50,078 bases of DNA, from the NCBI GenBank assembly GCA_047628655.1, contig JBLHVR010000003.1, positions 1-50,078 of the forward strand, given 5' to 3'. The notes beneath the pieces are model-generated. The model was given only the letters and a program-made list of their open reading frames with translations. It was not told the DNA's origin and did not search any database. Position numbers and translations under genes: made by a program. This stretch comes from Lentimonas sp. (GTDB lineage Bacteria > Pseudomonadota > Alphaproteobacteria > Rickettsiales > UBA1997). This document shows, one piece after another, positions 28,176 to 32,383 of this stretch (position 1 is the first letter of the stretch; each line of letters opens with the position of its first letter).

Positions 28176-28250
28176 GCGGGTGTAGCTCAGTGGTAGAGCA
28201 CAACCTTGCCAAGGTTGGGGTCGAGAGTTCGAACCTCTTCACCCGCTCCA
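28176..28250 (+). tRNA. tRNA-Gly (anticodon GCC)
   Basis: GCGGGTGTAGCTCAGTGGTAGAGCACAACCTTGCCAAGGTTGGGGTCGAGAGTTCGAACCTCTTCACCCGCTCCA forms a cloverleaf with encoded CCA. Confidence 0.97.
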
Positions 28251-28334: not shown

Positions 28335-29351
28335 TTAAATTGTTAGCCTTCCTAAGGCTTGATAATCAATTTCTATATAGGCACCTTTTTTCAAATCCAT
28401 CAAATAACTTCTGGCTTTTAATTGCAGCTTCTTATTAAAAATAATATTTTCAATTTGACTGCGATCATTGTCGGTTAGAATGCTTTGTGTTTTTTCATCA
28501 GTAACTTTAAAGATATAATACCCACCATTCATAAGCATTGGCCTAGTAACTTGATTTAAACCAGCTCGACCAACTTTTTCATAGATTCTGTCATCTATAT
28601 CACCCCTGCCAACAAATCCAACTTCCCCACCAAATTCTGCTGTCGGGCTTCTAGAAAACTGCTTAGCAATACTAGAGAAGTCCTTTCCTGACCTTATTTC
28701 ATCAAACAATTTGACGGCAAGGTTTTTACCGTCAATTGTATCTTTTTGACTTTCGTAAGACACTGGAATAAAAATCTCTGAAATGAAATATTGATTAATG
28801 CTGTGATTCACTTTTTTAAGCTCCAGAAGCTCTTCCACCTCATTCTGATTCACTTTAATTCTGGGAACAAAAACTTTCTTAACAAGTTGGGACCATAATA
28901 TTTGAGATTTCAATTGCTCCAAGAAGCTATCATGGGAAATGTTTTTGTTTTTAAATAATTTGGATAAATTAGAAGTTTTAACACCGAAACCTTGAGCAAT
29001 ATCTCCTTGTGCTTGATTTAGTTTTTCTGGATTAATGCTGATGTTGAGATTGTCCGCTTCTTGATTTTGCAATTTCTCATCAATCATTTTTTTCAAGACC
29101 TGATTTAAAATGATCCTCTTTTCATTGTCATTATCAATTTTGATTTTGGAGATGTTTAAAATTAATTTATAGCGCGATATTAAATCAATATTAGTGATAA
29201 GTTGATTATCGACTTTCGCTACGACAAAAACTGGTTGATTTGGAGATGCTAAGGCATTTTTAGCAAGAAAAATTGCTAATATTAGAAAAAATGAAGCGAT
29301 AAATATTCTGCGCACAATTTTATTTTTATTTTTTAATTTCTTTATAGACAC
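28335..29351 (-). CDS. surA: SurA-like periplasmic chaperone / parvulin PPIase
   Basis: VVAKVDNQLITNIDL SurA N-domain; rotamase DFSSIAKQFS.SPTA..GGEVG; AYIEI C-terminus. Confidence 0.8.
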   Translation of the reverse strand: MSIKKLKNKNKIVRRIFIASFFLILAIFLAKNALASPNQPVFVVAKVDNQLITNIDLISRYKLILNISKIKIDNDNEKRIILNQVLKKMIDEKLQNQEADNLNISINPEKLNQAQGDIAQGFGVKTSNLSKLFKNKNISHDSFLEQLKSQILWSQLVKKVFVPRIKVNQNEVEELLELKKVNHSINQYFISEIFIPVSYESQKDTIDGKNLAVKLFDEIRSGKDFSSIAKQFSRSPTAEFGGEVGFVGRGDIDDRIYEKVGRAGLNQVTRPMLMNGGYYIFKVTDEKTQSILTDNDRSQIENIIFNKKLQLKARSYLMDLKKGAYIEIDYQALGRLTI

Positions 29352-30696
29352 TTATTCCTCTGAGTAGATCGATTGCTCTGGCGAGACGGTAATCTTCATT
29401 GTAAAGATCAATATTTGTATCATCAATTTGAACCTTTTTGGCTGACTTGATTTCGTTATCAATTTGATTTTTCAGGTGACCATTTAAGCTTGATTCAGAA
29501 CTTTTATTTTCCTTAGTTGATTTCTCAATTTTAGCATCTCCAACCAAAATATCTGGCTCAATTCCATGGGCCTGAATTGATTTTCCTAAAGGAGTATAGT
29601 AAAGAGCAGTTGTCATTTTAACTGCACCACGATTTTTATCTAATGGAACTATAGATTGAACCGATCCTTTACCGAAAGATTTAGCTCCCAAAATAATTGC
29701 TCTTTTATTATCTTGCAACGCACCCGCCACAATTTCTGAAGCCGAAGCTGATCCTTCATCTATTAGGACCACTAAGGCGATATTTTTGGTTAGAGTCTGG
29801 TTTGAATCGTCTTTATAGATTTTTTCATTCGTTTTTCCTCTTCCAGCAATTGAAACGATGGTTTTTCCTTTATCTAAAAATAAGCCACTAACTTTTATCG
29901 ATTCATTTAATAACCCACCTGGGTTTCCCCTTAAATCTAAAACGATGCCTTGTATTTTATCGGCTCCAATTTGCTTAATCATTTTATTGAGCGCAGAAAT
30001 CATTCCACTAGAAGCCTGACCAGAAAAAGTATTGATTTTAACATAGGCAATATTTTTTATAACGTCAGATCTAACGGCCTTAATTTTAATGATTTTTCTA
30101 GTTATAACAATTTCAAGAGGAGATTTTTCACCAGCCCTCAGCACTGTAATTGAAACTTTAGTATTTGGTTTCCCTCGAAGTTTTTTTACTACTTCCCCAA
30201 TTTTTAAACCCACAACCGAATTTCCTTCAATTCGACTAATGTAATCTCCAGACTCAATTCCAGCTTTATCTGCAGGAGTTCCTTCAATTGGAGAGATAAT
30301 TTTAACCAAGGAGTTATGCATGGTAATTTCAATACCAAGACCACCAAATTCACCCTTGGTTTGAACCTTCATTTCCTTTAGATCATCAGCGTTAAGATAT
30401 GAAGAGTGAGGATCTAAGGATGATAGAACTCCTTCAGCCGCAGCCTCAGAAAGCTCTTTATAAGTTTTTTCTTCAACGTAATCTTTCTTAACTCTCTTAA
30501 TTATGTCCCCAAGAAGCTGGTCTCCATCAAACTTATCTGAAGTAAGATTTGAGCTTCTAGACTTGCTTTGAGAATATGAAATACTTGAATAAGAAGCGGC
30601 AACAACAAAAACAAGGATCAGAAGTGACTTTATTGGATGTTGCATTGTGAATTTATGAATTATTTTGAACGGATTCGTTGTTTTTTGAGGTGTCAC
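29326..30696 (-). CDS. ctpA: S41 family C-terminal processing protease (start may be 30645)
   Basis: LDPHSSY, PDZ GEFGGLGIEI, LDLRGNPGGLL, SASASEIVAGALQD, FGKGSVQ, TTALYYTP. Confidence 0.93.
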   Translation of the reverse strand: MTPQKTTNPFKIIHKFTMQHPIKSLLILVFVVAASYSSISYSQSKSRSSNLTSDKFDGDQLLGDIIKRVKKDYVEEKTYKELSEAAAEGVLSSLDPHSSYLNADDLKEMKVQTKGEFGGLGIEITMHNSLVKIISPIEGTPADKAGIESGDYISRIEGNSVVGLKIGEVVKKLRGKPNTKVSITVLRAGEKSPLEIVITRKIIKIKAVRSDVIKNIAYVKINTFSGQASSGMISALNKMIKQIGADKIQGIVLDLRGNPGGLLNESIKVSGLFLDKGKTIVSIAGRGKTNEKIYKDDSNQTLTKNIALVVLIDEGSASASEIVAGALQDNKRAIILGAKSFGKGSVQSIVPLDKNRGAVKMTTALYYTPLGKSIQAHGIEPDILVGDAKIEKSTKENKSSESSLNGHLKNQIDNEIKSAKKVQIDDTNIDLYNEDYRLARAIDLLRGISVYKEIKK

Positions 30697-30703
30697 GGAG
30701 ATA

Positions 30704-31090
30704 TTATTTTATACCATATTCTGCCTTAAGCTTGTTAGTAACTGACTCAGGAGGCTCATCACCATAGGCTGAAAATAGAATTTCACCGTAATTTTCAAGA
30801 TGAATAATGTCATCATTTAAAGCTTTTAAAAACATAGAAAGTTTTAGCCTTTGAACTAAAACATAATACCAAGCGTTACGCTCGTCATCAACACCTTTAA
30901 CTAGGTAGATTAAGTCGGCTTTACTGTGTTTCGTACCTTCCATTGCGCTATTACTTCCAGATGAATCTAGTGCTTGAGTAGTCATTTTTTTCTCCTGTTT
31001 TTCTTTTAATATTTTGTCTAATGTGCTTTCGCGTTTTTCGATCTGTCTTGGCTCTTCCGTTTTTTTAGAAAATTTATCTGCAAATGACAT
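30704..31090 (-). CDS. Conserved hypothetical protein
   Basis: 128 aa; C-terminal domain LIYLVKG.D..R.AWYYVLV...F...L....I.LENYG.IL.SAYG.EPP, which I recall from Rickettsiales hypotheticals; tightly linked to both neighbours. Confidence 0.75.
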   Translation of the reverse strand: MSFADKFSKKTEEPRQIEKRESTLDKILKEKQEKKMTTQALDSSGSNSAMEGTKHSKADLIYLVKGVDDERNAWYYVLVQRLKLSMFLKALNDDIIHLENYGEILFSAYGDEPPESVTNKLKAEYGIK

Positions 31091-31095
31091 AATGA

Positions 31096-31260
31096 CTATG
31101 AATTAATATTATTATTTAACCACCAATCATTAACCGAATTTCTGGGGCCACAAGGGCCATTATCATTGGAAACGCAGGGACTTTTAATGTCCATAACCTT
31201 ACTAACGGCACAAGACGACATAAATAAACTAAGTAAAACTAGAATAAAAAGCTTCTTCAT
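31096..31260 (-). CDS. Small lipoprotein, VirB7/RvhB7-like (DUF2706-like)
   Basis: Missed by the ORF track. MKKLFILVLLSLFMSSCAVSKVMDIKSPCVSNDNGPCGPRNSVNDWWLNNNINS (54 aa): signal peptide with lipobox Cys17 and the IKSPCVS...PC..R..VN pattern of Rickettsia RvhB7. Confidence 0.75.
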   Translation of the reverse strand: MKKLFILVLLSLFMSSCAVSKVMDIKSPCVSNDNGPCGPRNSVNDWWLNNNINS

Positions 31261-31408
31261 AATTATTAAATTTAATTCCTGCTAAAATTGATGAATAAAA
31301 CATCAAAAACAAAAATTACCGAAACAAAATTGATTATTGATTTAAATAGCAATTAAATTATAAAGACCGCCACTAAAAGTAAATAGTTTAATTTTAAATA
31401 TCAGAATT

Positions 31409-32383
31409 TTGTTCAGAAAGATAAATATAATCGGCCTTGGCCTTATTGGTGGCAGCCTGGCTAGATGTTGTAAAAAATACCATCTTGGTGATAAGATTTT
31501 CGGTTATGACCAAGACGACAGCCAGAACAAATTTGCATTTAATAATCAAATTATTGATCAAGTTTTTAACTTTAAAAACATTGAGGAAAATGAACTAATA
31601 ATAATCTGCTCACCACTATTTTCTTACGATGAAATTTTTAGGAAAATTCAACCCCTAATCAGTCAAAAAACTCTAATAATTGATATTGGATCTTTGAAAG
31701 AATTCACCTTCCCACTCGCAAAAGAAATTTTACAAGAGAAAGCTAAAAATTTTATTGCCTGCCATCCAATTGCCGGATCTGAAAAATCTGGAATTTTAAA
31801 TTCGAAAGAAGATTTATTTTTTAATAAAAAAGTTTTAATCTCCAAAAGCTTAATTAATGAAGAAAGAGACATTAACAAAATTGAACAATTTTGGCAAAAA
31901 ATTGGCTCGAAACCAGAATTTATTGATGCAAAAAAACACGATGAAATTTTTGCCTTAGTTTCGCATTTTCCTCAGTTTCTAGCTTTTGCAGCACAGGAAG
32001 ATTTTCAAGATAGTGATGATAAAATTTTAAATCACCATTTTCGCTTACAAAACTCTAACTTAAAAATGTGGCGAGAGATTTTTGATTTAAACCGCGTTAA
32101 CATTGAGTATTATTTACAGTTTTATTTGAAGAATATTGATAACATGATTGCCTTGTTAAATGAAGAAAAATATGAGAATACAAAAACCAAAAGAGAAGCT
32201 TTAGTTTATTGCTTCTTAAATCTACCCAATATTGAAAAATTTAAAAAATATGCCGGCTCTGGATTCAAAGATTTTACCGCTATTAACCACAATTTAAAAA
32301 AGCCGAAAATTTTAGCCGAAAATAAAGATTCATTAATTAAGTTTTTAAACAACATTAAATCAAAAATTCATGAGCTTAAGTGA
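31409..32383 (+). CDS. tyrA: Prephenate/arogenate (cyclohexadienyl) dehydrogenase
   Basis: [10 protein letters not shown] Rossmann motif, [31 protein letters not shown]; TTG start. Confidence 0.85.

Follow-up and report, generated by a model that had tools for sequence, protein, structure and literature searches.

VirB7-type lipoproteins of type IV secretion systems (T4SS) are small and divergent and are for that reason missed by annotation pipelines. The archetypal operon order around their genes is virB6-virB7-virB8. In Rickettsia, RvhB7 has been on record since 2009, with DUF2706 proteins assigned to VirB7 on the basis of synteny and motifs; the same study defines the VirB7 P[ILV]NK motif and states an affinity of the rvh system to lvh (PMC2653234). 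For selected environmental Rickettsiales, Schön et al. 2022 carried out tblastn searches for virB7 and present an rvh synteny figure (PMC9352585). Because RvhB7 has already been described in Rickettsia, the protein analyzed here is regarded as an unannotated new member of a known family.

The window, i.e. the whole 50,078-nucleotide stretch of DNA that was analyzed, contains at 31096..31260 on the minus strand an rvhB7-like gene, with an ATG start and 54 codons plus stop, that is predicted to encode a small outer-membrane lipoprotein precursor. Its translation, as given in the ORF list of the window, is MKKLFILVLLSLFMSSCAVSKVMDIKSPCVSNDNGPCGPRNSVNDWWLNNNINS (54 aa) and includes the motif DIKSPCVSNDNGPCGPRNSVN. 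The lipoprotein signal, Cys17 and the motif quoted in the preliminary description of this DNA are thus all found on this strand. Residues 1-16, MKKLFILVLLSLFMSS (31213..31260, minus strand), were read directly from the sequence as a signal peptide. They consist of a basic N-terminus with two lysines and a hydrophobic run, followed by M-S-S-Cys17, which by eye reads as a lipobox. Cys17 (codon 31210..31212, minus strand), which is predicted to be lipidated and to begin the mature protein, occupies an invariant column in all three alignments, and a comparable N-terminus ending in Cys is present in all 52 homologues of the 53-sequence alignment. The core family motif, K26-S27-P28-C29, is encoded at 31174..31185 (minus strand) and its S-P-C is invariant in the 53 sequences as well as in 20 Rickettsiaceae DUF2706 proteins. 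Further downstream, P36-C37-G-P-R-N-S-V-N44 (31129..31155, minus strand) combines the second conserved Cys with a (P)[VI]N motif. Across the 53 sequences, C17, S27, P28, C29 and N44 are invariant while K26, P36 and C37 are nearly so. The (P)[VI]N motif appears to correspond to the P[ILV]NK motif of VirB7 proteins. At this position, the window copy reads S-V-N-D, and P-[VI]-N-[DT] is found in 5 of 9 close relatives; the remaining 4 share with the window copy a Ser in place of the Pro, and the Asn is invariant. Relatives mostly carry KPVN or KPIN at the S-V-N site of the window copy.

Eight close homologues with 54-73% identity were identified in a word-indexed search, and when 1.84 billion proteins were searched exhaustively with phmmer, 45 cluster representatives matched the ORF product at E<=1e-3. 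One of these 45, a 516-aa high-GC repeat protein (P0016), was judged spurious and left out. One homologue of the peptide bears the source name 'butyrate kinase' in public annotation. When the ORF was compared with 20 relatives that have identical motif spacing (8 that differ in spacing were excluded and 1 locus was missed by the pattern), pS was 0.63-0.94, i.e. near saturation, versus a pN of 0.12-0.42. The ORF is under purifying selection. Based on its homologues, its invariant residues and low pN at high pS, we conclude that it is a real gene and not a chance ORF. A profile seeded from the ORF recovered a B7 candidate, mostly in single copy, in 193 of the 201 genomes of the order that were sampled. 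No paralogue was found in its own assembly, which is 88% complete and 4.5% contaminated; a second copy may sit in the missing part.

Compared as a single sequence, the ORF product scores below threshold against the relevant family models. Pfam DUF2706 (PF10913), its sole Pfam match, gives 19.6 bits (E 8e-4, residues 2-33), below the 25-bit gathering cut-off, and in a six-frame search of the genome the ORF was the only DUF2706 match (20.6 bits). The best NCBIfam match is LvhB7 (NF041529), aligned over residues 1-46 to model positions 1-41 of 45 with 24.2 bits (E 2e-5); given a cut-off of 70 bits, the ORF product is therefore not an LvhB7 equivalog. It should be noted that the signal peptide contributes part of both scores. 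At E<=1, DUF2706 is matched by all 9 close relatives and LvhB7 by 8 of 9, and at E<=0.01 the two models match 22 and 33, respectively, of the 53 wider relatives. As a bona fide DUF2706 reference set, the family of a single-contig genome of Rickettsiaceae type (G078) was used. Matches exceeding the Pfam cut-off occur in 20 of its 26 genomes, and the 20 corresponding ORFs were aligned. Their consensus, SC-T-P-x-x-P-Y-E-I-K-S-P-C-V-S followed after a gap by P-C-x-R-R-P-V-N, bears out the KSPC...PC.RRPVN pattern that the preliminary description had given for Rickettsia. The columns of C17, S27-P28-C29, P36-C37 and N44 are also invariant in these 20 proteins. Profile-profile comparison (hhalign) of the 9-sequence close-family alignment with the 20 Rickettsiaceae DUF2706 proteins yielded a probability of 98.2% (E 3.2e-14, 46 columns). 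With signal peptides removed, 95.8% and E 8e-9 were obtained over just 19 columns, extending up to the variable loop. The similarity to DUF2706 on which the preliminary description had staked its proposal is therefore present, sub-threshold for the single sequence and clear at the profile level.

A profile built from the 53 sequences matches G078 at 702651-702812, in the same gene to which PF10913 gives 111.7 bits. This gene is flanked on one side by a divergent B8-B9 pair and on the other by B8-B9(truncated)-B10-B11-D4, a position that equals the published one of rvhB7 in R. typhi (PMC4676284; PMC2653234). Because of the profile-profile homology and the recovery of this gene at the published rvhB7 position, we take the ORF to be an orthologue of RvhB7 and, very probably, a T4SS subunit. 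Searches against solved structures were less informative: the single ORF product gave no match at E<=10 in a sequence search, and the best relevant match of the 53-sequence profile was TrwH, at E 0.55 and over the signal peptide only, with no significant match to a solved VirB7 protein.

Like Rickettsia RvhB7 (RP288, PF10913), the window copy shows the lipobox Cys, about 8 residues, (D/E)(I/L)KSPCV(S/A), a loop, PC and a basic-(P)-V-N segment, and it is single-copy in a genome with duplicated rvhB4, rvhB8 and rvhB9 and multiple rvhB6 genes. Unlike in Rickettsiaceae RvhB7, its inter-Cys loop has 7 instead of 13-20 residues, the second Cys is followed by a conserved G-P, and a DWWL tail is present. 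Its gene heads orf128-ctpA-surA and not rvhB8-I-rvhB9-II-rvhB10-rvhB11 as in Rickettsia, and its score stays under the Pfam cut-off. Legionella LvhB7, compared via the NF041529 model only, is similar in being the best NCBIfam match and differs in belonging to another bacterial order and in the score under the model's cut-off. VirB7 of A. tumefaciens, TraN of pKM101 and TrwH of R388 appear analogous in size class, lipoprotein nature and a Pro/Val/Asn motif, which is taken to bind the C-terminal domain of VirB9. The window copy shares no detectable sequence similarity with these proteins beyond the signal peptide, and besides its predicted lipidated Cys it has two conserved Cys where they have one or none.

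The organism does encode an rvh T4SS, as had been proposed. Its 1.55 Mb assembly of 105 contigs contains two VirB4, two VirB8 and two VirB9 genes, the latter forming two VirB8-VirB9 pairs on contigs C1 and C15, together with four large TrbL/VirB6-domain proteins (987-1781 aa), VirB10, VirB11 and two VirD4. These features match the rvh hallmarks, including duplications, listed in PMC11077975. VirB11 is found on C22 and is 65% identical to the gene following B10 in G078. All of these matches, including both VirB4, both VirD4 and the four VirB6-domain proteins, are located off the window's contig. The contig itself gave no match for VirB4, B6, B8, B9, B10, VirD4 or T2SSE/VirB11, and Pfam scans covering 41 window ORFs and 6 more revealed no T4SS family, in agreement with the earlier observation that no vir gene lies within the 50 kb. 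It had further been suggested that the located rvhB8-B9 pairs be inspected for a B7 gene of their own. No small lipoprotein ORF was found beside either pair, where intergenic gaps are 79 and 4 nt, and the ORF is the only B7 candidate in the genome. Overall, the rvh genes are spread over at least nine contigs. For example, rvhB10 stands alone at G000:C26:10022-11356 (plus strand) and is followed by a kinase/pyrophosphorylase-type gene and then a response regulator, with rvhB11 and rvhD4 on other contigs.

By similarity to G078, the VirB9 on C15 (G000:C15:18152-19132, minus strand) is the orthologue of RvhB9-I, and that on C1 (G000:C1:1847-2785, minus strand) the orthologue of RvhB9-II, its N-terminal domain being 55% identical to that of the truncated Rickettsiaceae-type B9-II. 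Each of the two paralogues has a full C-terminal domain with one conserved Cys near its end, whereas B9-II of G078 is truncated after the N-terminal domain. The C-terminal domain of B9-II is described as absent or degenerate in classical families (PMC4676284). Cys269 in the RvhB9-I C-terminal domain is invariant in 69 sequences and aligns with the Cys of Rickettsiaceae-type B9-I. The public call of the organism's own RvhB9-I gene starts at an internal Met (286 aa) and lacks the signal peptide that an upstream GTG start provides. Co-occurrence of B7 with VirB9 does not lend independent support to the assignment: of the 8 genomes that gave no B7 match, 5 were inspected, and each of these 5 retains two VirB9 genes.

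If RvhB7 behaves like other VirB7 proteins (PMC2653234), its precursor would be exported, cleaved before Cys17 and lipidated on this residue, leaving a mature 38-residue peptide that would be tethered to the outer membrane. Through its C-terminal (P)-V/I-N-D-W-W segment, this peptide would then bind the C-terminal domain of RvhB9 and may in this way stabilize an RvhB7/B9/B10 outer-membrane core complex. Cys29 and Cys37 could bridge the 7-residue loop, or one of them could form a disulfide with the lone conserved Cys of the RvhB9 C-terminal domain, comparable to the pairing of B7 and VirB9 Cys described for A. tumefaciens (PMC2653234).

Downstream of the ORF, three further minus-strand genes follow at very short distances. 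After 5 nt comes orf128 (30704..31090), a conserved protein without a Pfam match, followed after 7 nt by ctpA (29326..30696), a carboxy-terminal processing protease with S41 and PDZ domains (Peptidase_S41, 2.7e-52). The last co-directional gene encodes a SurA-like periplasmic chaperone/PPIase (28335..29351; SurA_N and Rotamase), shares 26 nt with the end of ctpA and is bounded downstream by a tRNA-Gly gene (28176-28250) on the plus strand, opposite to the cluster. Upstream, tyrA (prephenate dehydrogenase; 31409..32383, plus strand; PDH_N, PDH_C) and then ispG are divergently oriented. The 148-nt spacer between B7 and tyrA (31261-31408) should be the site of the promoter; a simple sigma-70 scan gave no minus-strand match in it, and one AGGA is located upstream of the ORF, about 17 nt from the ATG. 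No terminator-like site was predicted between B7 and orf128. In this layout, rvhB7 is the first gene of a tight, co-directional cluster rvhB7-orf128-ctpA-surA, with which it is probably co-transcribed.

This arrangement is conserved among relatives. Within the same GTDB family, orf128 adjoins B7 in all 12 loci and ctpA is present in 11, the twelfth ending at a contig edge. Among 80 species-level related loci, found by motif in genome_contigs, (orf128-)ctpA lies directly downstream of B7 on the same strand in 67-70; of the remaining loci, 3 have B7 after a B6 gene and 7 are arranged otherwise, 3 of the latter with less than 200 nt of downstream sequence. Specifically, orf128 directly follows B7 in 52 of the 80, surA is present in 47, and divergent TyrA and IspG are found upstream in 44 and 39, respectively. 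Two related loci link the cluster to rvh genes. L056 (2176-6665) encodes B7-orf128-ctpA-surA-rvhB10, all on one strand, and in L108 (3378-7592) a divergent rvhB8-I/rvhB9-II pair lies 1.2 kb upstream of B7-ctpA. The preliminary description had inferred that the subunit moved into an envelope-maintenance operon. Such a move is plausible in view of the 5- and 7-nt gaps, the lack of a predicted terminator and the conservation in 12/12 family loci; its direction, however, is unproven. Since rvh genes remain next to the ctpA block in L056 and L108, entry of ctpA-surA into an rvh islet is equally conceivable. The linkage of B7 to ctpA-surA may reflect co-regulation or only a rearrangement scar. Functional coupling in this family and its allies, in which assembly of the T4SS outer-membrane core is co-expressed with and dependent on the periplasmic protease and SurA and orf128 is a new rvh-associated factor, seems rather doubtful. 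No discussion of a B7-ctpA-surA linkage was found in the literature searched for virB7 with ctpA; the arrangement may already be shown in the figures or supplements of PMC9352585.

The orf128 product has no Pfam or NCBIfam family, and the ESM Atlas gave no usable match. Its AlphaFold model (mean pLDDT 73.9) combines an N-terminal half that is charged and disordered with a C-terminal α/β domain (residues 59-125) whose values exceed 90. A Foldseek search of this model against the PDB returned nothing at E<=0.001, the best match having E 0.19. Of the 5 other Rickettsiales genomes searched, 4 contain 2-4 paralogues of the C-terminal domain.

Across the order, the position of B7 was analyzed in a sample of 34 genomes from 33 families, covering up to 9 kb on each side of B7 and using tblastn at E<=1e-3 with proteins of the window's own genome as queries. 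The ctpA type was found in one genome, from the window's own genus, and the Rickettsiaceae type, with B7 between two B8 genes, likewise in one (L136). B4 and/or B6 lie within the flanks in 16 genomes, and another 16 have no vir match there, a number to be read with the caveat that tblastn could miss divergent vir genes. In 9 of these 16, all those that came from the first 20-genome batch, the neighbors of B7 are plainly housekeeping genes by Pfam. With 16 of 34 genomes lacking a vir match near B7, detachment is therefore common in the order and not a special trait of the window. The earlier statement that B7 normally lies next to rvhB8/B9 holds for Rickettsiaceae (L136; PMC4676284) but not for the order as a whole, where it applies to 1 of 34 genomes. 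The ORF does not lie directly upstream of rvhB8-I as in Rickettsia, and because this adjacency was seen in a single genome of the sample, we consider it the Rickettsiaceae arrangement and not family-defining. The most widespread arrangement sampled is B7 after rvhB6. Both the rvhB6-B7 and the Rickettsiaceae arrangements fit the break-up of an ancestral ...B6-B7-B8... order.

Three other explanations of the ORF were weighed against its role as RvhB7. That it is no gene but a short reading frame arisen by chance between two genes would fit its length below usual annotation cut-offs, the lack of a consensus promoter in the upstream spacer and the distance of the AGGA from the ATG. This is refuted by the conservation data, namely its presence throughout nearly the whole order, amino-acid changes that stay low while synonymous ones approach saturation, and the invariance of the Cys, Ser-Pro-Cys and Asn residues, and we assign it practically no probability. 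Another explanation concerns the family as a whole. DUF2706 proteins, the ORF included, could be a conserved small lipoprotein of Rickettsiales that is not a true counterpart of VirB7 and is linked to the T4SS only by position and in some lineages. The lack of significant similarity to solved VirB7 proteins speaks for this, as do the 16 of 34 genomes without a vir gene in the fetched flanks. A 2025 preprint also found no VirB7 in Wolbachia wMel by structural homology and omitted it from its core-complex model (10.1101/2025.08.29.673095). However, the lipobox agrees with VirB7, as does the (P)[VI]N motif (PMC2653234). Further, 33 of 53 family members match LvhB7 of the Legionella lvh T4SS, and in 18 of 34 genomes B7 adjoins B6, B4 or B8, which corresponds to the virB6-virB7-virB8 slot. 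VirB7 of A. marginale is reportedly an immunogenic T4SS protein, judging by a paper title. Taken as a whole, this explanation appears very improbable to us.

Alternatively, the ORF could be a descendant of RvhB7 that now serves its envelope neighbors, for example as a partner or tether of CtpA or of SurA-dependent outer-membrane biogenesis, and is no longer a T4SS subunit. The conservation of the B7-(orf128-)ctpA(-surA) order in 70 of the 80 related loci and all 12 family loci, together with near-zero gaps, would be consistent with such a role, and lipoprotein adaptors of C-terminal processing proteases exist in other Gram-negatives, namely NlpI with Prc and LbcA with CtpA. These adaptors are large TPR proteins, however, and not 38-residue peptides. 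Moreover, the genome keeps B8, B9, B10, B11, D4, B4 and B6 with the ORF as its sole B7 candidate, the same single-copy orthologue adjoins B6 or B8 in other families, and the conserved residues are identical to those of Rickettsiaceae RvhB7. A purely envelope-directed function is hence very improbable, and we favor an RvhB7 that has remained a T4SS subunit. As such, the ORF reveals no new kind of system, and its detachment is less surprising than first thought. Its value lies in showing that the current Pfam DUF2706 model misses environmental clades and that the place of B7 differs by family, being after rvhB6, before rvhB8 or alone. The profile can be used for fuller rvh inventories in metagenome-assembled Rickettsiales and for tracing the break-up of the ancestral operon.

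Several other features of the window and genome were recorded. Between 18438 and 21866 on the minus strand, eight consecutive, abutting same-strand ORFs of 71-209 aa encode hydrophilic products without a Pfam match at 1e-6. They resemble a single large gene of about 1,100 codons that has been interrupted by stops or frameshifts. A virB2 array was considered for this 18.4-21.9 kb string and rejected, the hydrophilic products having neither signal nor membrane segments. Near the contig end, at 347-787 on the minus strand, lies a fragment of a transposase/integrase core domain (rve). ATP/ADP translocase (PF03219) gave no match in the genome; as the control genomes likewise gave none, this absence is uninformative. 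The window also carries biosynthesis genes for riboflavin, aromatic amino acids (EPSP synthase, TyrA), arginine and purines, as well as a TonB-dependent receptor with ExbBD-TonB and MlaA/MlaC. Its gene content is that of a metabolism less reduced than in classical Rickettsiales.
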